Notes: generated by a model not told the origin, from the sequence alone. A stretch of DNA of 64,000 nucleotides from Escherichia coli (GCF_009931435.1 NZ_CP043414.1); one strand, 5' to 3'; numbered from the stretch's first letter, positions 33,832 through 44,764 are shown. Numbers and translations: made by a program.

Positions 33832-36508
33832 CGAACCCTTACGTCCCGACCCCGATCGTCTGCTGGAACAAACTGCCGCGCCGCATCGGGGGAAGCTGAA
33901 AGTTTTTTTCGGTGCCTGTGCAGGCGTCGGGAAGACCTGGGCGATGCTGGCAGAAGCCCAACGACTGCGGGCGCAAGGGCTGGATATTGTGGTTGGCGTG
34001 GTTGAAACTCACGGACGGAAAGATACCGCCGCAATGCTGGAAGGGCTGGCTGTTCTGCCGCTAAAACGCCAGGCGTACCGTGGGCGGCATATCAGCGAGT
34101 TTGATCTCGATGCCGCCCTCGCCCGCCGTCCGGCGCTGATCTTAATGGACGAACTGGCGCACAGTAATGCGCCAGGTTCTCGTCATCCTAAACGCTGGCA
34201 GGACATCGAAGAGCTGCTGGAAGCGGGCATTGATGTTTTCACGACCGTCAACGTTCAGCATCTGGAAAGCCTGAACGATGTGGTCAGCGGCGTCACCGGA
34301 ATTCAGGTGCGGGAAACCGTGCCCGATCCCTTTTTTGATGCTGCCGACGACGTAGTGCTGGTGGACTTGCCCCCGGACGATCTGCGTCAACGGCTGAAAG
34401 AAGGCAAAGTCTATATTGCCGGGCAGGCGGAGCGCGCCATTGAACATTTTTTCCGCAAAGGCAATCTGATCGCCCTGCGCGAACTGGCACTGCGCCGTAC
34501 TGCCGATCGCGTAGATGAGCAAATGCGCGCCTGGCGGGGGCATCCTGGCGAAGAGAAAGTCTGGCACACGCGCGACGCGATTCTTTTATGTATTGGGCAT
34601 AACACCGGCAGCGAAAAACTGGTCCGCGCGGCGGCGCGGTTGGCGTCACGGCTGGGGAGCGTCTGGCACGCGGTGTATGTTGAAACCCCTGCCCTGCACC
34701 GCTTACCGGAGAAAAAACGTCGGGCAATTCTCAGCGCCTTACGTCTGGCGCAGGAGCTGGGCGCGGAGACAGCAACACTTTCTGATCCGGCGGAAGAAAA
34801 AGCCGTAGTGCGTTATGCCCGTGAACATAATCTCGGCAAGATTATTCTCGGTCACCCGGCCTCGCGCCGCTGGTGGCGTCGGGAAACGTTTGCTGACCGA
34901 CTGGCGCGCATCGCCCCCGATCTCGATCAGGTGCTGGTCGCGCTTGATGAACCACCCGCCCGCCCGCTTAATAACGCGCCGGATAGCCGCTCTTTTAAAG
35001 ACAAGTGGCGGGTACAGATTCAGGGGTGCGTGGTTGCCGCCGCATTATGTGCCGTTATCACCTTAATTGCCATGCAGTGGCTGATGGCGTTTGATGCCGC
35101 CAACCTGGTGATGCTGTATCTGCTTGGCGTGGTGGTGGTGGCGCTATTTTATGGACGCTGGCCTTCGGTGCTTGCTACCGTCATTAATGTGGTGAGTTTC
35201 GATCTCTTTTTTATCGCCCCACGCGGCACGCTCGCCGTCTCTGATGTGCAGTATCTGCTGACTTTCGCGGTGATGTTAACCGTCGGGCTGGTGATCGGGA
35301 ATCTTACTGCTGGCGTACGTTATCAGGCGCGGGTAGCCCGTTACCGCGAGCAACGCACACGACACTTATATGAAATGTCGAAAGCTCTGGCTGTGGGACG
35401 CAGTCCGCAGGACATCGCCGCCACCAGCGAACAATTTTTTGCTTCCACGTTTCATGCCCGCAGCCAGGTGTTGTTGCCCGATGACAACGGTAAATTGCAG
35501 CCGTTGACACATCCGCAAGGAATGACGCCGTGGGACGATGCCATCGCGCAGTGGAGTTTTGATAAAGGCCTGCCTGCGGGCGCGGGCACCGACACGTTAC
35601 CCGGTGTGCCATACCAGATTTTGCCGTTAAAAAGCGGCGAGAAAACCTACGGGCTGGTGGTGGTGGAACCGGGGAATCTGCGCCAGTTGATGATCCCGGA
35701 ACAGCAACGCCTGCTGGAGACGTTTACGTTGTTAGTCGCCAATGCCCTGGAACGCCTGACGCTGACCGCCAGCGAAGAACAGGCGCGGATGGCAAGCGAA
35801 CGAGAACAGATCCGCAACGCCCTGCTGGCGGCGCTTTCGCATGATTTACGCACGCCGCTTACGGTGCTGTTCGGTCAGGCAGAAATCTTAACGCTCGATC
35901 TGGCAAGCGAAGGATCGCCTCACGCCCGCCAGGCCAGCGAGATTCGTCAGCATGTGCTGAACACGACCCGACTGGTGAATAATCTACTGGATATGGCGCG
36001 AATTCAGTCCGGCGGCTTTAATTTGAAGAAAGAGTGGTTAACGCTGGAAGAAGTGGTCGGCAGCGCGCTGAAAATGCTGGAACCGGGTTTATCCTCGCCC
36101 ATCAATCTTTCTCTGCCAGAACCGCTGACCTTAATCCACGTTGACGGGCCACTCTTTGAACGGGTGCTGATTAATCTGCTGGAGAACGCGGTGAAATACG
36201 CGGGTGCGCAGGCCGAAATTGGTATCGATGCCCACGTTGAGGGCGAAAATCTACAACTGGATGTCTGGGATAACGGCCCCGGTCTTCCGCCAGGTCAGGA
36301 GCAGACGATATTCGATAAGTTTGCTCGTGGAAATAAAGAGTCGGCAGTGCCGGGTGTAGGGCTTGGGCTGGCAATTTGTCGGGCAATTGTGGATGTACAC
36401 GGCGGCACCATTACCGCGTTCAACCGACCGGAAGGTGGTGCCTGTTTTCGTGTTACACTTCCCCAGCAAACTGCCCCTGAACTTGAAGAATTTCATGAGG
36501 ATATGTGA
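33824..36508 (+). CDS. kdpD: sensor histidine kinase KdpD
   Basis: start taken at [41 protein letters not shown] (894 aa); H-box LSHDLRTPL. Confidence 0.95.
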
Positions 36509-37182
36509 CAAACGTTCTGATTGTTGAAGATGAACAGGCTATTCGTCGCTTTCTGCGCACGGCGCTGGAGGGTGACGGTATGCGCGTTTTTGAAGCCGAA
36601 ACGCTGCAACGGGGGCTGCTGGAAGCGGCGACTCGTAAGCCAGATTTGATTATTCTCGATCTCGGCCTGCCAGACGGTGATGGGATTGAGTTTATCCGCG
36701 ACCTGCGCCAGTGGAGCGCGGTGCCAGTAATTGTGCTTTCCGCCCGCAGCGAAGAGAGCGACAAAATCGCCGCGCTGGATGCCGGAGCGGATGATTACCT
36801 GAGTAAGCCATTTGGCATTGGTGAATTGCAGGCCCGTCTGCGCGTCGCATTACGCCGCCACTCCGCCACCACCGCGCCCGAGCCGCTGGTGAAATTTTCC
36901 GATGTTACCGTCGATTTAGCTGCCCGCGTGATTCACCGCAGTGAGGAAGAGGTGCATCTCACCCCGATTGAATTCCGCCTGCTGGCGGTGCTACTCAACA
37001 ATGCCGGAAAAGTGCTCACCCAGCGCCAGCTTCTCAACCAGGTGTGGGGACCAAACGCGGTCGAACACAGCCACTATTTGCGTATTTATATGGGGCATCT
37101 GCGACAAAAACTGGAGCAAGATCCCGCCCGCCCTCGCCATTTTATTACTGAAACCGGTATTGGGTATCGGTTTATGCCATGA
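36505..37182 (+). CDS. kdpE: response regulator KdpE (OmpR family)
   Basis: 225-aa [36 protein letters not shown]. Confidence 0.95.
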   Translation: MTNVLIVEDEQAIRRFLRTALEGDGMRVFEAETLQRGLLEAATRKPDLIILDLGLPDGDGIEFIRDLRQWSAVPVIVLSARSEESDKIAALDAGADDYLSKPFGIGELQARLRVALRRHSATTAPEPLVKFSDVTVDLAARVIHRSEEEVHLTPIEFRLLAVLLNNAGKVLTQRQLLNQVWGPNAVEHSHYLRIYMGHLRQKLEQDPARPRHFITETGIGYRFMP

Positions 37183-37456
37183 ATTATTATTCAATAAATA
37201 CGCTTAACTAATTATTAATTTATTATTAAACCTGCCCCGAAAATTATTATTTGGCAGGTTTAATTTCTTAATGAAAATATAACCTACGAAATTGCAACAT
37301 TTAAACAACAAAACAGCATCTAATATGGCGCTATTCATAATTAACGATTTATTATTTGGGGTGTGATCGTTTTTTGTTGATCTTCTTCACAGTTTATAGC
37401 CTTTTCATGGATAGAATAACTCTACCTTCAACTGACACAGCAAAAGGTAAAGGTAA

Positions 37457-37561
37457 ATGGAAAATAATAACCGCTTAATGCCTCATATAAGGCGGACAAC
37501 CCATATCATGAAGTTTGCCCATCGTAATAGTTTTGACTTTCATTTCTTTAATGCCCGTTAG
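37457..37561 (+). CDS. speFL: ornithine-sensing leader peptide of the speF operon (34 aa)
   Basis: hand-translated MENNNRLMPHIRRTTHIMKFAHRNSFDFHFFNAR stop; too short for the ORF track. Confidence 0.8.
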   Translation: MENNNRLMPHIRRTTHIMKFAHRNSFDFHFFNAR

Positions 37562-37871
37562 TCTTCTGACTAAAGGGCACCCCAGCGTACAGGTCTCCCT
37601 GACTTTAAGCATTACAGGTTAATACCTGTATCCCTCGGTGCTCATATACTGCTAACCCTTTTAAACTCTAAATAATTCAAGTCGCAGCACTAGCAACTTG
37701 AAGTATGACGAGTATAGCCAGTTACCGGGCTGGTCTGGGTTATTGCATCTGCAAAAAGCAAACTACTGATTTATTTATCAGCGGTGGAGTTTTGCTTTTT
37801 TTCCGGCGTGATCGATTTCTCCTTTGAGAAATTGAGGACCTGCTATTACCTGAAATAAAGAGATGAACAAA

Positions 37872-40070
37872 ATGTCAGAATTAAAAATTGCCGTTAGTCG
37901 TTCTTGCCCGGATTGTTTTTCCACTCATCGTGCATGCGTGAATATTGACGAAAGTAATTATATTGACGTTGCCGCCATTATTTTATCAGTCAATGATGTT
38001 GAACGTGGAAAACTCGATGAAATAGACGCTACTGGCTATGGCATTCCTGTTTTTATTGCAACGGAAAATGAAGAACGTGTACCAGCAGAATATCTGCCAC
38101 GTATTACTGGTGTCTTCGAGCATTGCGAATCACGGAAAGAATTTTACGGACGTCAGTTAGAAACCGCCGCCAGCCATTATGAAACGCAGCTGCGCCCGCC
38201 CTTCTTCCGCGCACTGGTCGATTATGTCAATCAGGGCAATAGCGCTTTTGACTGCCCGGGTCATCAGGGGGGTGAGTTTTTCCGTCGCCATCCGGCAGGC
38301 AATCAGTTCGTGGAATATTTTGGCGAAATGCTCTTCCGCTCCGACTTGTGTAATGCCGACGTAGCAATGGGCGATCTACTGATTCATGAAGGTGCGCCAT
38401 GCATTGCACAGCAACATGCGGCTAAAGTGTTTAATGCCGATAAAACGTACTTTGTTTTAAACGGCACCTCCTCTTCCAACAAAGTGGTTTTAAACGCCCT
38501 GCTAACACCGGGTGATCTGGTGCTGTTTGACCGCAATAACCATAAGTCTAACCACCACGGGGCCTTGCTACAGGCTGGTGCAACACCGGTTTATCTGGAA
38601 ACAGCACGTAACCCGTATGGTTTTATCGGTGGTATTGATGCGCACTGCTTCGAAGAAAGTTATCTGCGTGAACTGATTAGAGAAGTTGCACCGCAACGGG
38701 CAAAAGAGGCGCGTCCGTTCCGCCTCGCTGTGATTCAGTTAGGCACCTACGACGGTACTATTTATAACGCCCGCCAGGTGGTGGATAAAATCGGTCATCT
38801 GTGTGACTACATCCTGTTTGACTCAGCATGGGTCGGCTATGAACAGTTTATTCCGATGATGGCGGACTGTTCGCCGCTGCTACTGGAGCTTAATGAGAAC
38901 GATCCGGGTATTCTGGTTACGCAATCTGTACATAAGCAGCAGGCTGGTTTTTCTCAGACTTCACAAATTCATAAAAAAGACAGCCATATCAAAGGGCAAC
39001 AGCGTTATGTACCGCACAAACGCATGAACAACGCCTTTATGATGCACGCCTCCACCAGCCCGTTCTATCCGCTGTTTGCCGCACTGGATATTAACGCCAA
39101 AATGCATGAAGGTGTCAGCGGTCGTAATATGTGGATGGATTGTGTGGTTAACGGTATTAATGCCCGCAAATTGATCCTCGATAACTGCCAGCACATTCGT
39201 CCGTTCGTTCCTGAACTGGTGGATGGTAAACCCTGGCAATCGTATGAAACAGCGCAAATTGCGGTTGATCTGCGCTTCTTTAAATTTGTACCCGGTGAGC
39301 ACTGGCATTCTTTTGAAGGTTACGCAGAGAATCAATACTTTGTCGATCCGTGCAAACTGTTGCTGACAACCCCAGGTATTGATGCACGTAACGGCGAATA
39401 CGAAGCGTTCGGTGTACCCGCGACGATTCTTGCTAACTTCCTGCGCGAAAATGGCGTAGTGCCGGAAAAATGCGATCTTAACTCCATCCTCTTCCTGCTG
39501 ACTCCGGCAGAAGATATGGCCAAACTGCAGCAACTTGTTGCCCTGCTGGTACGCTTCGAAAAACTACTGGAAGCTGATGCGCCTCTGGCGGAAGTATTGC
39601 CTTCCATCTACAAACAGCATGAAGAGCGCTACGCCGGTTATACCCTGCGTCAGTTGTGCCAGGAAATGCATGATTTGTATGCCCGTCACAACGTGAAACA
39701 ACTGCAAAAAGAGATGTTCCGTAAGGAACACTTCCCACGCGTCAGCATGAATCCACAGGAAGCCAACTATGCCTACTTACGCGGTGAAGTGGAATTGGTT
39801 CGTCTGCCGGATGCAGAAGGCCGTATCGCAGCCGAAGGTGCGCTTCCTTATCCTCCGGGTGTGCTGTGTGTTGTTCCGGGTGAAATCTGGGGTGGTGCTG
39901 TTCTGCGTTACTTCAGCGCTCTGGAAGAAGGGATCAACCTGCTGCCAGGTTTTGCACCGGAGCTGCAGGGTGTCTATATCGAAGAACATGATGGTCGTAA
40001 GCAAGTTTGGTGCTATGTCATCAAGCCTCGTGATGCGCAAAGCACCCTGTTGAAAGGGGAAAAATTATGA
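37872..40070 (+). CDS. speF: inducible ornithine decarboxylase
   Basis: start taken at MSELKIAVSRSCPDCFSTHRACVNIDES (732 aa) within ORF 37863..40070. Confidence 0.95.
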   Translation: MSELKIAVSRSCPDCFSTHRACVNIDESNYIDVAAIILSVNDVERGKLDEIDATGYGIPVFIATENEERVPAEYLPRITGVFEHCESRKEFYGRQLETAASHYETQLRPPFFRALVDYVNQGNSAFDCPGHQGGEFFRRHPAGNQFVEYFGEMLFRSDLCNADVAMGDLLIHEGAPCIAQQHAAKVFNADKTYFVLNGTSSSNKVVLNALLTPGDLVLFDRNNHKSNHHGALLQAGATPVYLETARNPYGFIGGIDAHCFEESYLRELIREVAPQRAKEARPFRLAVIQLGTYDGTIYNARQVVDKIGHLCDYILFDSAWVGYEQFIPMMADCSPLLLELNENDPGILVTQSVHKQQAGFSQTSQIHKKDSHIKGQQRYVPHKRMNNAFMMHASTSPFYPLFAALDINAKMHEGVSGRNMWMDCVVNGINARKLILDNCQHIRPFVPELVDGKPWQSYETAQIAVDLRFFKFVPGEHWHSFEGYAENQYFVDPCKLLLTTPGIDARNGEYEAFGVPATILANFLRENGVVPEKCDLNSILFLLTPAEDMAKLQQLVALLVRFEKLLEADAPLAEVLPSIYKQHEERYAGYTLRQLCQEMHDLYARHNVKQLQKEMFRKEHFPRVSMNPQEANYAYLRGEVELVRLPDAEGRIAAEGALPYPPGVLCVVPGEIWGGAVLRYFSALEEGINLLPGFAPELQGVYIEEHDGRKQVWCYVIKPRDAQSTLLKGEKL

Positions 40071-41386
40071 GTCAGGCTAAATCGAACAAAATGGGCGTCG
40101 TTCAGTTAACCATACTGACGATGGTCAACATGATGGGCTCCGGCATCATCATGCTGCCGACAAAGCTTGCCGAAGTTGGGACAATCTCAATAATCTCCTG
40201 GTTGGTGACAGCCGTAGGCTCAATGGCGCTGGCATGGGCATTCGCAAAATGCGGTATGTTCAGCCGTAAATCAGGCGGTATGGGCGGTTATGCCGAGTAT
40301 GCTTTCGGTAAATCCGGTAACTTTATGGCGAACTATACCTACGGCGTCTCGCTGCTGATTGCTAACGTGGCGATTGCTATTTCGGCAGTTGGTTACGGCA
40401 CCGAACTGCTCGGCGCGAGTTTGTCACCAGTGCAGATTGGTCTGGCAACCATCGGAGTGCTGTGGATTTGTACCGTGGCTAACTTTGGTGGTGCGCGCAT
40501 TACCGGGCAAATCAGTAGCATTACCGTGTGGGGGGTCATTATTCCGGTGGTAGGCCTGTGCGTTATCGGCTGGTTCTGGTTTAGCCCGACACTTTACGTT
40601 GATTCCTGGAATCCGCATCATGCACCGTTCTTCAGTGCGGTAGGTTCTTCCATCGCCATGACGCTGTGGGCTTTTCTTGGTCTGGAGTCTGCGTGTGCGA
40701 ATACTGATGTAGTGGAAAACCCGGAACGTAATGTGCCAATCGCGGTACTCGGCGGTACGTTAGGTGCGGCGGTGATTTATATCGTCTCCACCAACGTGAT
40801 TGCCGGGATTGTGCCCAATATGGAGCTGGCAAATTCAACGGCACCATTTGGTCTGGCCTTCGCGCAAATGTTCACACCGGAAGTGGGTAAAGTCATTATG
40901 GCGCTGATGGTGATGTCCTGCTGCGGTTCACTGCTTGGCTGGCAGTTCACCATTGCCCAGGTGTTTAAATCTTCATCTGATGAAGGCTACTTCCCTAAAA
41001 TTTTCTCCCGTGTAACCAAAGTGGATGCACCGGTTCAGGGGATGTTGACCATTGTGATTATTCAGAGTGGATTGGCACTGATGACCATTAGCCCGTCACT
41101 GAACAGCCAGTTCAACGTGCTGGTTAACCTGGCCGTGGTGACCAATATCATTCCGTATATCCTGTCGATGGCGGCATTAGTCATTATTCAGAAGGTCGCC
41201 AATGTGCCACCATCAAAAGCGAAAGTAGCAAACTTTGTTGCCTTTGTTGGTGCGATGTACAGTTTCTATGCGCTGTACTCATCCGGGGAAGAAGCCATGC
41301 TGTACGGTTCCATCGTGACTTTCCTTGGTTGGACACTGTATGGTCTGGTATCACCACGCTTTGAACTGAAAAACAAACACGGTTAA
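40067..41386 (+). CDS. potE: putrescine:ornithine antiporter
   Basis: 439-aa ORF MSQAKSNKMGVVQLTILTMVNMMGSGIIMLPTKLAE, start overlaps speF stop. Confidence 0.95.
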   Translation: MSQAKSNKMGVVQLTILTMVNMMGSGIIMLPTKLAEVGTISIISWLVTAVGSMALAWAFAKCGMFSRKSGGMGGYAEYAFGKSGNFMANYTYGVSLLIANVAIAISAVGYGTELLGASLSPVQIGLATIGVLWICTVANFGGARITGQISSITVWGVIIPVVGLCVIGWFWFSPTLYVDSWNPHHAPFFSAVGSSIAMTLWAFLGLESACANTDVVENPERNVPIAVLGGTLGAAVIYIVSTNVIAGIVPNMELANSTAPFGLAFAQMFTPEVGKVIMALMVMSCCGSLLGWQFTIAQVFKSSSDEGYFPKIFSRVTKVDAPVQGMLTIVIIQSGLALMTISPSLNSQFNVLVNLAVVTNIIPYILSMAALVIIQKVANVPPSKAKVANFVAFVGAMYSFYALYSSGEEAMLYGSIVTFLGWTLYGLVSPRFELKNKHG

Positions 41387-41402
41387 AAAAAGCGAAATAA
41401 AA

Positions 41403-41437
41403 AAGGGCGATTGAATGATCGCCCTTTCTGTTTGTTG
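41403..41437 (+). terminator. intrinsic terminator after potE
   Basis: hairpin aaagggcgat-tgaatg-atcgcccttt followed by ctgtttgtt. Confidence 0.7.
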
Positions 41438-41468
41438 ACAAAGAGTTCGTTATTTATGCCGCATCCGG

Positions 41469-41611
41469 CAGGTGTAGGGTCCAAACGCGGTCGAACACAG
41501 CAACTATTTGCGTAATTATATGAGGCATTTGCGACAAAAACTGGAACAGGATCTCGTCCGCCCCGCCATTTCATTACTGAAACCGGTATTGGGTATCGGT
41601 TTATGCTTTGA
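41469..41611 (+). repeat. degenerate partial duplicate of the kdpE 3' end (direct repeat of 37039..37182)
   Basis: ~143 bp aligning by eye at roughly 90% identity with the last ~144 bp of kdpE, including ccaaacgcggtcgaacacag and aaaccggtattgggtatcggtttatgc; frame broken by an inserted a (tag). Confidence 0.75.
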
Positions 41612-41734
41612 AAAAAGTGGCAATGTATGGATAAAGTCATTTTTTATTCAAATATAAGGAACTTAATATTTAAAAAATGTCCCATACAATGCCTCATCAT
41701 AAATGACACCGTAGCACACAAGGAGCAAGTAGCG

Positions 41735-42385
41735 ATGCGTGAAGTGAGTCAGTTAGTAAATACTGAAGATTCAGCCTGGACAATAATCCAGAATTGGTTA
41801 AAAGAAGCCACAAACCATGCCGAACTCTTACCGGTTAATAAAGATTTAGCCGAAACCGCACTTTATCAATTACAGGTTACAACAAAATCACCGATGGGTG
41901 CGCTTGTCTATGGCTCCGGAGGTCTGCTGATTGATAACGGTTGGTTACGCATAGCAGGCTCTGGTCACCCCCGGTTACCACGAGATCCAGCAAGTTGGAC
42001 ACAACGCCCTGAATTCGCAAGCGTGCGGGCTTTACCCATCGCCGATGATGTCGCAGGGGGAATTTTTGCTCTTAATGGTGGCGATCTTGGGGAAGATACT
42101 GGCTGCGTTTATTATTTTGCGCCAGATACGCTGAGTTGGGAAAGTCTGGAGGTTGGATATTCTGAGTTTCTTCAGTGGGCATTATCCGGTGATTTAGATA
42201 CCTTCTATGAAAATGTACGCTGGCCGCAATGGCAAGAAGACGTAATAAAATTATCGGCAACGGAAGCCTTCACTTTCTACCCTTTCTTATGGGTACAAAG
42301 TGAAGAAGCAAGAACAAGAAAAGTTATTTCGCTTACTGAACTCTGGGAAATGCAGTATCAAATGAAAGAAACAATCACGCAATAA
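41735..42385 (+). CDS. ybfG: YbfG-like hypothetical protein, intact here
   Basis: start taken at MREVSQLVNTEDSAWTIIQNWLKEA with aaggag Shine-Dalgarno; 216 aa within ORF 41627..42385; positional match to K-12 ybfG. Confidence 0.7.
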   Translation: MREVSQLVNTEDSAWTIIQNWLKEATNHAELLPVNKDLAETALYQLQVTTKSPMGALVYGSGGLLIDNGWLRIAGSGHPRLPRDPASWTQRPEFASVRALPIADDVAGGIFALNGGDLGEDTGCVYYFAPDTLSWESLEVGYSEFLQWALSGDLDTFYENVRWPQWQEDVIKLSATEAFTFYPFLWVQSEEARTRKVISLTELWEMQYQMKETITQ

Positions 42386-42425
42386 GACATGTTCAGGTCC
42401 GGGTTTCATTCCCGGACTCGCTATT

Positions 42426-42920
42426 TTAATGTGTGTTTATCGCTTTCAATTCTTGCTGGCAATTTTCTGACTGACAGCGTCGCAACTCAATAATCCCGAC
42501 ATGCATCATCGAGCCAAAAAATCCGCTTTCGCTGACATAATCCTCATTAACTATCGGTCGAGTGCCGGGCTTACCCTGGCAAATCCCCATAAAAAATGAG
42601 GTGTAGCATTGCCATTCAGGATTTAAACCGGTCTTTTCTTGTGCTGACATATCATGAAGATAAGTAAGTTCTTTTTCGTTCCCGCCTGACAACTGCCAGC
42701 GGCGGGTATTATCAGGTAAGTTATCGCCACGGCAATTTGTCTTACACCGGGAAGGCGCAATATTTACCGCAATGCTACCCGTTAATCCTCTGGTTTTATC
42801 TTTAGGGGTCAGTAACCAGTCACCAGCTAATGATGATTGTTCAGGTTGGGCGCATGCTGTCAGCAGTAGTGTGGCGGTAATTAATGCCACTCTGACGACC
42901 AGACTCCTTTTGGTCTTCAT
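42426..42920 (-). CDS. ybfP: lipoprotein
   Basis: start taken at MKTKRSLVVRVALITATLLLTAC (lipobox LLTAC), 164 aa. Confidence 0.8.
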   Translation of the reverse strand: MKTKRSLVVRVALITATLLLTACAQPEQSSLAGDWLLTPKDKTRGLTGSIAVNIAPSRCKTNCRGDNLPDNTRRWQLSGGNEKELTYLHDMSAQEKTGLNPEWQCYTSFFMGICQGKPGTRPIVNEDYVSESGFFGSMMHVGIIELRRCQSENCQQELKAINTH

Positions 42921-42970
42921 TCGGAATTCCCTTGAGCTATTCAGTTTGTTGGCAAAGTACTCGTTGTTCA

Positions 42971-43070
42971 TGCCGGATGCGGCGTGAACGCCTTATCCGT
43001 CCTACAAAATAGTGCAAATTCAATATATTGCACCATCCTCGTAGGCCTGATGAACGTAGCGTATCAGGCT
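42971..43070. repeat. REP elements between pgm and ybfP
   Basis: tgccggatgcggcgtgaacgccttatccgtcctac and gtaggcctgatgaacgtagcgtatcaggc. Confidence 0.5.
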
Positions 43071-43123
43071 ATCATAAGTAAAAAGGGCGATCTTCCGACC
43101 GCCCTTTTTCTTATTTAATGTGT

Positions 43124-44764
43124 TTACGCGTTTTTCAGAACTTCGCTAACAATCTCAACCGCTTCTTTCTCGATCTGCTTGCGATGTTCTTCACCGAGGA
43201 AGCTTTCGCAGTAGATTTTGTATGCGTCTTCCGTGCCTGACGGACGCGCGGCGAACCAGCCGTTGTCAGTCATCACTTTCAGACCGCCAATAGAAGCACC
43301 GTTGCCCGGTGCCGCCGTCAGGCGCGCGGTGATCGGGTCACCAGCCAGGGTGCTGGCGCTCACCATTTCCGGAGACAGCTTAGACAGCGCCGCTTTTTGT
43401 GCGGAAGTCGCAGCTGCCTGCAAACGGTTATAGCTCGGCGCACCAAAGCGTTTTGCCAGTTCGTTGTAGTGTTCCTGCGGGTTCTTACCAGTGACAGCGG
43501 TGATTTCCGCCGCCAGCAGACACATGATAATGCCGTCTTTATCAGTCGACCACGGCGTACCGTCGAAACGCAGGAAGGAAGCCCCCGCGCTCTCTTCGCC
43601 GCCAAAGCCAAAGCTGCCGTCGAACAGACCATCCACAAACCATTTGAAGCCTACCGGGACTTCTACCAGCTTACGGCCTAAGTCATTGACCACACGGTCG
43701 ATCATCGCAGATGAAACCAGCGTTTTACCGACAGCAACATCTTTGCCCCACTGCGGACGATGCTGGAACAGGTAGTTGATCGCCACCGCCAGGTAGTGGT
43801 TAGGATTCATCAAACCTGCCGGAGTGACGATACCGTGACGGTCATAATCCGGGTCGTTAGCAAATGCCAGATCGAACTTATCACGCAGTGCCAGCAGGCC
43901 CGCCATCGCACACTCGGAGGAGCAGTCCATACGGATCGCGCCGTCTTTATCGAGGTGCATAAAGCGGAAGGTTTGATCGACCTGATCGTTAACGATGGTC
44001 AGGTTAAGGTTGTAATACTCGCCAATACGCTTCCAGTATTCGATACCGGAACCGCCCAGCGGATCAACGCCCAGCGTCAGGCCCGCTTTCTGAATCGCCG
44101 CCATATCAACGATATCGGCCAGACCTTCCACAAACGGCTGCACCAGATCCTGCTCTTTCACATGACCGGATGCCATCGCTTCGTCGAGGGAGATACGCTT
44201 CACACCTTTCAGGCCATCGGCCATCAGTGCGTTGGCCCTGTCCTCCACCACTTTGGTGACGTTAGTATCAGCCGGGCCACCATTTGGCGGATTGTACTTG
44301 ATACCACCATCTTCCGGCGGGTTATGGGACGGTGTAATCACGATACCGTCTGCCAGCGGGCCACCTTTTTTATTGTGAACCAGGATGGCATTGGAAACGG
44401 CAGGCGTCGGAGTGAAGCCATTGTTTTCCTGCACAATAACATCTACGCCGTTCGCTGCCAGCACTTCCAGTACGGAAATGAACGCAGGCTCGGACAGGGC
44501 GTGAGTATCTTTACCCACATAGCAAGGGCCAGTGATGCCGTTTTTCGCACGTTCTTCAGCAATTGCCTGAGCGATCGCCAGAATATGCGGCTCGTTAAAG
44601 CTGTGGCGCGCTGCACTGCCACGGTGACCGGAAGTACCGAATTTCACCGCGTGCTCCGCATTCCCTGCTTCAGGTTTCAGTACATAATATTGCGCCGTCA
44701 GTTGGGCGACGTTAATCAAATCACTCTGTTGTGCAGGTTGGCCTGCACGATTGTGGATTGCCAT
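43124..44764 (-). CDS. pgm: phosphoglucomutase
   Basis: start taken at [33 protein letters not shown] (546 aa); active-site TPSHNP motif. Confidence 0.95.

Follow-up and report, generated by a model that had tools for sequence, protein, structure and literature searches.

A decayed repeat of the kdpE 3' end and the tandem structure of the kdpE-pgm interval in Escherichia coli

The kdpE-pgm interval and its repeats

In the 64,000-nucleotide (nt) stretch of Escherichia coli DNA analysed here (NZ_CP043414.1; hereafter the window), the response-regulator gene kdpE and the convergent phosphoglucomutase gene pgm enclose the inducible ornithine decarboxylase operon speFL-speF-potE followed by the genes ybfG and ybfP. 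The 3' end of kdpE (37039-37183), comprising its last 47 codons, the stop codon, and 1 nt more, recurs in the same orientation at 41469-41612, between potE and ybfG, in agreement with the direct repeat of roughly 90% identity reported in an earlier note made from the sequence alone. This downstream copy corresponds to the K-12 pseudogene ybfI, and, together with a second, interleaved pair of repeats, it points to a rearrangement in which two alternative versions of the same chromosomal interval came to lie in tandem. The features of the interval are as follows.

36505-37182, plus strand: kdpE, intact response-regulator gene of 225 codons with a GTG start, ending ...RFMP* (open reading frame (ORF) list, annotation of matching E. 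coli records, translation of the last 47 codons)
37039-37183, plus strand: repeat R1, the last 47 kdpE codons (codon 179 onward), the stop codon, and 1 nt more (repeat search, alignment, blastn)
37180-37193, unstranded: palindrome TGAATTATTATTCA, whose first triplet is the kdpE stop codon; conserved left boundary of the speF module (comparison of TGAATN4ATTCA across loci)
37457-37561, plus strand: speFL leader peptide ORF of 34 codons (ORF list; annotation in ST131 and R32_14_1F, which share the intergenic variant)
37872-40070, plus strand: speF, inducible ornithine decarboxylase (ORF list, tblastn, annotation)
40067-41386, plus strand: potE, putrescine-ornithine antiporter (ORF list, annotation)
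41400-41432, unstranded: T1, potE terminator hairpin GGGCGATTGAATGATCGCCC (terminator scan of both strands, repeat with T2, comparison with the E. albertii locus L008)
41430-41468, plus strand: repeat R2 (A), a 32-nt unique sequence and a truncated arm, TGCCGCATCCGGCA (41457-41470), of a repetitive extragenic palindromic (REP) element (best match in the window is A')
41469-41612, plus strand: repeat R1', the pseudogene ybfI, dead kdpE codons 179-225 (alignment, blastn, position of MG1655 ybfI, Prokaryotic Genome Annotation Pipeline (PGAP), Pfam)
41613-41734, plus strand: AT-rich sequence separating ybfI from ybfG, where the ybfG promoter is presumed to lie (sequence; weak promoter-like matches, no more than in shuffles)
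41735-42385, plus strand: ybfG, intact DUF2625 protein of 216 aa, a pseudogene in K-12 (annotation; NCBIfam NF008494, 503 bits)
42426-42920, minus strand: ybfP, small lipoprotein or hypothetical protein of 164 aa (annotation; no NCBIfam match)
42944-42982, plus strand: repeat R2' (A'), the other copy of A, continuous with the full REP element REP1 (alignment with A)
42971-43075, unstranded: REP1-spacer-REP2 cluster, the ancestral Escherichia kdpE-pgm intergenic sequence (cross-genome comparison; Rfam ES036 and naRNA4)
43080-43112, unstranded: T2, terminator hairpin beside pgm, GGGCGATCTTCCGACCGCCC, a direct repeat of T1 (repeat search, sequence comparisons)
43124-44764, minus strand: pgm, phosphoglucomutase, convergent with the kdp and speF genes, the right anchor of the variable gap (ORF list, annotation)

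A repeat search of the window resolves the two kdpE copies into segments of 89% (37039-37133 and 41469-41563) and 92% identity (37132-37183 and 41561-41612), with the spacing between them dropping from 4430 to 4429 along the repeat. Within the window blastn aligns the kdpE 3' end with the copy at 90.3% identity over 145 columns, with 13 mismatches and 1 gap (E = 2.4e-52), well above chance, the next-best hit in the 64 kb having an E value of 0.002. Homology starts at codon 179 and stops 1 nt beyond the stop codon (TGAA), with the last 34 nt of the copy identical to kdpE, and E. coli strain ECCNB12-2 shows 100% identity over 361 nt around the copy. The fragment spans kdpE codons 179-225, corresponding to the latter half of the winged-helix DNA-binding domain, and has neither a start codon nor the receiver domain; the translation of the K-12 ybfI allele matches positions 42-77 only of the 77 positions of the Pfam Trans_reg_C model (E = 7e-8). 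The downstream copy is a dead, non-functional 3' fragment of kdpE, because it carries both a nonsense codon and a 1-nt deletion. The nonsense codon, third in the fragment, arose by a TGG>TAG substitution and gives the translation QV*GPNAVEHSNYLRNYM..., and the deletion lies at ~41564 (CCCTCGCC > CCC-CGCC). The frameshift is additional to the nonsense codon and is restricted to window-like alleles, the K-12-like allele being without the indel, so that what the earlier note had taken for a 1-nt insertion creating a stop is a deletion and a separate substitution.

In E. coli K-12 MG1655 the pseudogene ybfI (b4636) lies between potE and the pseudogene ybfG, at a position equal to that of the window copy. 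The copy is the positional equivalent of ybfI, and the feature is therefore already known by annotation. PGAP labels the copy an incomplete “winged helix-turn-helix domain-containing protein” with its N-terminus missing, and calls a pseudogene at the same position in K-12 RV308 and a near-identical strain. The earlier supposition that the repeat had not been described is accordingly not quite right; in the literature searched for ybfI, ybfG, ybfP, and b4636, however, no paper was found that deals with the fragment in E. coli or with how it arose.

The stretch between the two kdpE copies holds, as previously noted, speFL, speF, and potE, together with the potE terminator (ORF list and annotation). 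The copy does not follow this terminator immediately, as had been described, but is separated from it by a spacer of 36-41 nt (41428-41468), which is also repeated and has a REP arm at its end. This repeat, A (41430-41468), has its sole significant relative in the 64 kb just upstream of ybfP (A', 42944-42982), with 31 of 39 positions identical and a Smith-Waterman local-alignment score of 38, compared with a maximum of 30 in 200 shuffles. Beside ybfI, A ends in the 14-nt REP arm TGCCGCATCCGGCA abutting kdpE codon 179, with its A' counterpart continuing into a full REP. A is not a dispersed repeat, being present in 1-3 places per genome at the kdpE-pgm locus. The order of these repeats is interleaved (kdpE 3' end at 37039, A at 41430, ybfI at 41469, A' at 42944; R1..R2..R1'..R2'), and the interleaving of the kdpE/ybfI and A/A' pairs therefore indicates two units in tandem, a pattern that a simple insertion does not give.

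The interval extending from kdpE codon 179 to a REP would thus be present in two alternative versions, one after the other, apparently joined at a truncated REP arm. Unit 1 (37039-41468) contains the kdpE 3' end, speFL-speF-potE, T1, A, and the REP arm, and unit 2 (41469-42982) contains the kdpE 3' end that is now ybfI, ybfG-ybfP, A', and REP1. There is one novel joint, between the REP arm and kdpE codon 179, and this joint (A and TGCCGCATCCGGCA followed by GGTGTAGGG) is identical in six ybfI alleles representing both allele families. The T1 hairpin is of the E. albertii potE-terminator type (L008; L numbers denote compared loci). The T2 type lies beside pgm in E. whittamii, L006, O145:H28, KK19-02, and every potE-pgm E. 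coli examined, as well as in all speF-less Escherichia examined. The T1/T2 hairpins form the sole inverted repeat found by the repeat search. A derivation of A from the 3' end of pgm in an E. albertii-like donor was considered and rejected, with alignments to the pgm ends of the window, E. albertii, and ST131 at shuffle level (P = 0.12-0.73), and a candidate T1 remnant just upstream of ybfP was borderline (P ~0.05), its signal stemming from overlap with A, and was not used.

Distribution and decay of the kdpE fragment

Among 5426 complete E. coli genomes, speF is present at ≥80% coverage in 5038, the copy with its flanks in 1826, and the whole potE-ybfI-ybfG-ybfP-pgm segment in 1844. The copy tracks ybfG-ybfP and not speF-potE, because the genomes with the copy match in number those with the whole segment, against the far larger number with speF; ~3190 of the ~5038 speF-positive genomes (~63%) are without the copy. 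In ST131, O157:H7, and O111, potE is followed directly by pgm, with ybfI, ybfG, and ybfP all absent. A further 246 genomes, exemplified by KK19-02, have kdpE-REPs-ybfP-pgm with neither speF-potE nor ybfG, and 97, exemplified by O145:H28, have kdpE-REPs-pgm. In all, six arrangements of the kdpE-pgm gap are seen, tied to each other by identifiable repeat pairs. The REP1-spacer-REP2 block lies directly after kdpE in E. whittamii (L007), L006, O145:H28 (L005), and KK19-02. The KK19-02-type haplotype (L004 4145-4256; ~246 genomes, ~4.5%) consists of a kdpE with a TAG stop, two REPs, ybfP, A', and REP1, with its homology to the two-copy haplotype beginning exactly at the ybfP stop codon. The ~7% of complete E. 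coli genomes without an intact speF may matter where speF-potE is used as a marker or where acid and polyamine physiology is concerned.

Chimeric queries built from the window were used to seek haplotypes predicted to carry one unit. In CUWW10 and GF4-3 an intact kdpE continues straight into the ybfG side with one copy (kdpE-ybfG-ybfP-pgm), an arrangement that the earlier note had anticipated. CUWW10, however, looks like a recent deletion: its kdpD-kdpE is 100% identical to that of K-12 and its downstream sequence 99.1% identical, with the crossover lying within the last ~27 nt of kdpE/ybfI homology, and it is probably the product of kdpE x ybfI recombination in a K-12-like two-copy genome and not an ancestral state. 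R32_14_1F and N96 carry potE-T1-A-REP1-REP2-T2-pgm, sharing an A variant that matches neither A nor A' of the window. In the majority of E. coli, the potE-pgm intergenic sequence (L003 12360-12395; L095; L097) consists of the potE-side flank and a T2-type hairpin, whereas E. albertii and two-copy E. coli have a T1-type hairpin beside potE; the simple potE-pgm arrangement of most E. coli may thus be a T1 x T2 deletion product and not ancestral. All three deletion-type haplotypes exist, and since the deletion product expected from each repeat pair is found in other genomes, these repeats act as recombination substrates. A different route of loss is evident in E. coli KL53 (L090 4334-5160), in which an IS1 element 55-80 nt past the kdpE stop abuts a slightly truncated ybfG and speFL-speF-potE-ybfI is gone, consistent with an IS1-mediated adjacent deletion.

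Comparison of six ybfI alleles reveals two deeply diverged families, a window-like one with the 1-nt deletion and a K-12-like one without it, which correspond to phylogroup F (as in IAI39, SMS-3-5, and CE10) and phylogroup A respectively. All six share four derived changes (TGG>TAG, GGA>GGT, CAC>AAC, and ATT>AAT), three of which are nonsense or non-synonymous, and each family has ~5 further private changes; non-synonymous changes in the fragment comprise H>N, I>N, and G>R. With both the joint and these four changes common to the two families, a single origin followed by decay is indicated, and the alleles fit one founding event, probably older than the split between K-12-like and window-like alleles, and subsequent neutral decay. 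The families differ at 11 of 144 positions in the fragment, compared with 4 of 191 in its flanks (Fisher P = 0.03). Gene conversion from kdpE was considered as a cause of this faster change, with two shared polymorphisms (CCC/CCT and TTC/TTT) hinting at it but too weak a basis for the claim.

The surrounding region is itself variable. The speF-potE segment of the window (37183-41400 against L002) has a nucleotide identity of 93.5% to K-12, 97.4% to ST131, and 99.8% to R32_14_1F, whilst kdpD-kdpE is 95.7% identical to K-12, and ECCNB12-2 combines window-like ybfI/ybfG with a K-12-like kdpE end. The kdpE-pgm region is a mosaic of deep alleles. The kdpE-speFL intergenic sequence (37183-37456 in the window, compared with 1898-2130 in L001/L002) exists in two forms ~93 bp apart in length, the long form in the window, ST131, and R32_14_1F and the short form in K-12 and ECCNB12-2, with PGAP calling small doubtful ORFs in the long form (a “hypothetical protein” and a 43-aa “TonB-dependent receptor”). 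The ybfG gene (41735-42385; L002 6356-7006; L091) is intact in the window strain and CUWW10, is interrupted by an internal stop in both K-12 and CX08 and by a frameshift in GPEC60-33-648, and appears to be decaying repeatedly. Between the two REPs upstream of pgm, 43006-43048 matches the Rfam small RNA model ES036 (CssrF) at 45.5 bits (gathering threshold 37.6 bits), and a naRNA4-like REP match lies at 42966-43002 (Rfam).

Outside E. coli, a KdpE-anchored scan covered 80 loci from other species, in which the convergence of kdpE with pgm is the general arrangement. speF-potE lies between the two genes in 29 of the 80, including E. albertii, several Citrobacter, Enterobacter, Kluyvera, Lelliottia, Atlantibacter, and others, and is absent in 51. 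None of the 29 speF-potE-bearing loci has a second piece of kdpE. The adjacency of kdp and speF-potE is old and widespread, and is without such a repeat. The palindrome TGAATN4ATTCA starts exactly at the kdpE stop in 20 of the 29 speF-positive and in 0 of the 51 speF-negative loci (L008-L068), with the homology of R1 and R1' ending after its first 4 nt (TGAA). This palindrome resembles an ArgR “ARG box” half-operator, which would suit an ornithine decarboxylase operon. In Klebsiella indica (L020 10676-10760), kdpE-TGAAT leads directly into ~110 nt from the 3' end of potE, beyond which lies pgm. This is a separate loss of speF-potE, broken on the left a short way into the palindrome. Several speF-less Citrobacter also retain TGAAT after kdpE, which suggests secondary loss.

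Origin of the two-unit structure

We favour, with a probability of roughly 0.6, the interpretation that the locus is the scar of an exchange between the REP of a speF-potE haplotype and the kdpE site of a ybfG-ybfP haplotype, or of an equivalent circle integration. In the exchange, the REP downstream of the speF-potE haplotype would have recombined illegitimately with a site inside the kdpE of the ybfG-ybfP haplotype. In the alternative route, a linear fragment extending from kdpE codon 179 to the REP would circularise and integrate by a single homologous crossover, which in the 144-bp kdpE homology would bring in speF-potE, and in the 39-bp A-REP homology would bring in ybfI-ybfG-ybfP. After the rearrangement the kdpE fragment would decay neutrally, serving today only as a recombination substrate, with kdpE x ybfI recombination predicted to delete speFL-speF-potE, A x A' recombination to delete ybfI-ybfG-ybfP, and T1 x T2 recombination to delete everything between potE and pgm. 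E. coli is described in PMC3240628 as circularising incoming linear DNA and integrating it by a single crossover, and as also undergoing homology-facilitated illegitimate recombination.

Several points weigh against this interpretation. The 14-nt arm at the joint is a perfect complement of the usual REP 5' arm and not a full REP, and the other partner of the joint lies inside the kdpE coding sequence, which has no REP; the involvement of REPs in the rearrangement is thus suggestive and not proven. Furthermore, the interpretation does not account for the origin of A, which is missing where E. whittamii, L006, and O145:H28 have the simple kdpE-REP1-REP2-T2-pgm arrangement. All single-unit haplotypes could be secondary deletions and not surviving parents, with CUWW10 fitting this description, and E. 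fergusonii, E. marmotae, E. ruysiae, Shigella, and Salmonella fall outside the sample. The two-unit structure, its joint, the shared disabling mutations, the population distribution, and the deletion-type haplotypes are observed, whereas the succession of events and the precise route of recombination are inferred, and the haplotypes may have changed in either direction.

An intrachromosomal tandem duplication of a speF-potE chromosome, from kdpE codon 179 to REP1, with the second speFL-speF-potE-T1 then replaced by foreign ybfG-ybfP, would yield the same interleaved repeats and REP-kdpE joint, and duplication join-points associated with REPs are reportedly a known phenomenon. Copies identical at birth would fit the fragment-specific changes, which mostly look like post-inactivation decay, and an end of homology at TGAA, inside the speF-module palindrome, is expected if ybfG DNA replaced the speF module. 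However, a tandem duplication of 4.4 kb, being unstable, would have had to be fixed through a precise replacement ahead of its collapse, no T1 remnant was found upstream of ybfP (P ~0.05), and the ~246 ybfP genomes that have neither speF-potE nor ybfG, a kdpE ending in TAG, and another REP flank are left unexplained. Such genomes show that there is an independent haplotype with ybfP and without speF. We regard this course of events as possible but unlikely. The model of the earlier note, by which the repeat is a target duplication or duplication-mediated footprint of the first insertion of speFL-speF-potE beside kdpE, draws on the bracketing of the operon and its terminator by the repeats, and on the clean kdpE-ybfG junction that their recombination gives in two genomes. 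It is largely refuted by the distribution data and is quite improbable: none of the 29 speF-potE loci of other species and only a minority of speF-positive E. coli have the second kdpE copy, and the copy is instead tied to ybfG-ybfP, known in E. coli only. The repeat, at 144 bp, does not resemble a target-site duplication, speF-potE occupies the site elsewhere without it, and neither a transposase, an integrase, nor terminal inverted repeats were found between the copies, where only speFL, speF, and potE lie. Synonymous sites of E. coli and Salmonella are near saturation, and a neutral fragment diverged by 10% would on this reckoning be far too young for an insertion common to several genera. 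The repeat is therefore the footprint of a rearrangement, as had been proposed, and not a chance similarity or an unrelated element, but it does not record how speF-potE was acquired beside kdp. The integration of a circle bearing speF-potE by one crossover in the kdpE 3' end is among the routes allowed by the exchange-or-circle interpretation we favour.

The constant adjacency of the fragment and ybfG might suggest that both came in a foreign cassette from a species in which kdpE is followed by ybfG. The ybfG cassette is foreign, but the fragment is nearest to the kdpE of E. coli (90-92% identity), then E. albertii (87%), and then Citrobacter (≤85%), whereas the nearest full-length relatives of YbfG outside E. 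coli are merely ~50-57% identical at the protein level, and none of the 80 other-species kdpE loci has YbfG or YbfP within 10 kb. With the fragment closest to E. coli kdpE and YbfG without a close relative outside, the fragment was therefore made within Escherichia, and its import with the cassette is very improbable. Retention of the copy for a function, whether as an RNA, a ybfG promoter or operator, or a small protein, could draw on the identity of its last 34 nt with kdpE and on a weak promoter-like match (TTGAAA, 18-nt spacer, TAAAGT) from 41608, over the fragment stop codon. However, no Rfam match was found on 41469-41612 at E ≤ 1, with only REP-related and terminator-related matches nearby, and the 6 promoter-like sites of the fragment region are at background (4.0 ± 2.0 in shuffles). 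The conservation of the 3' end, with ≤1 change in the last 48 nt, is not significant under a uniform rate (P = 0.2), the fragment varies between the families more than its flanks do, and it combines a nonsense codon with a variable indel and is absent from two thirds of E. coli. The vestigial regulatory or RNA element entertained in the earlier note thus finds no support in these searches, and a retained function is highly unlikely.

The locus is an ordinary rearrangement scar. A more elaborate proposal, for which we see only a slim chance, is that kdpE/ybfI, A/A', and T1/T2 together form a recombination switchboard by which lineages could shed or regain either cassette as a unit, whether the acid-inducible ornithine decarboxylase/antiporter operon or ybfG-ybfP, with excised circles re-integrating via the 144-bp kdpE homology and REPs stacking alternative cassettes at a hotspot; were this true, the question would become whether turnover is frequent and selected or reflects occasional decay. 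The repeat is uninformative as to the origin of the adjacency between the kdp regulon and the operon for inducible ornithine decarboxylase. The rearrangement model does explain the origin of the K-12 pseudogene ybfI, and the locus offers a compact natural example of E. coli building and dismantling accessory content at one intergenic hotspot.

Comparison with known systems

The closest counterpart of the window copy is MG1655 ybfI, which likewise lies between potE and ybfG, shares the left joint, and is derived from kdpE, with the K-12 allele 93% identical. The window copy differs in belonging to the other allele family, in its extra 1-nt deletion, and in having an intact neighbouring ybfG, compared with the pseudogene in K-12; the MG1655 annotation of ybfI says “pseudogene” and nothing more. 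Integrase-mobilised islands at tRNA and tmRNA genes are flanked by attL/attR direct repeats of the 3' end of the gene. The kdpE locus resembles such islands in that a gene 3' end is duplicated, with one copy completing the gene and the other displaced as a fragment beyond the inserted DNA. Unlike them, it has no integrase, att-like core, or tRNA, its repeat is 144 bp long and 10% diverged, and the operon mostly occurs without repeats.

REP sequences are reported to lie at the join-points of tandem duplications by Shyamala, Schneider and Ames (1990, EMBO J 9:939). The window is like these duplications in having a novel joint beside a REP and directly repeated unit boundaries, and unlike them in that only one partner is a REP and the other lies inside kdpE, and in that the units carry different genes and hence do not form a plain duplication. 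In contrast to a transient amplification, the structure is stably fixed in about one third of E. coli. Circularisation and integration, or homology-facilitated illegitimate recombination, as presented in PMC3240628, predicts direct repeats of the homologous anchor and one illegitimate joint, which in the window would correspond to the 144-bp kdpE or 39-nt A repeats and the REP-kdpE joint. The work described there is experimental and uses small plasmids, with the illegitimate route occurring at 3e-10 per recipient, whereas the event proposed for the window is read from a natural haplotype.

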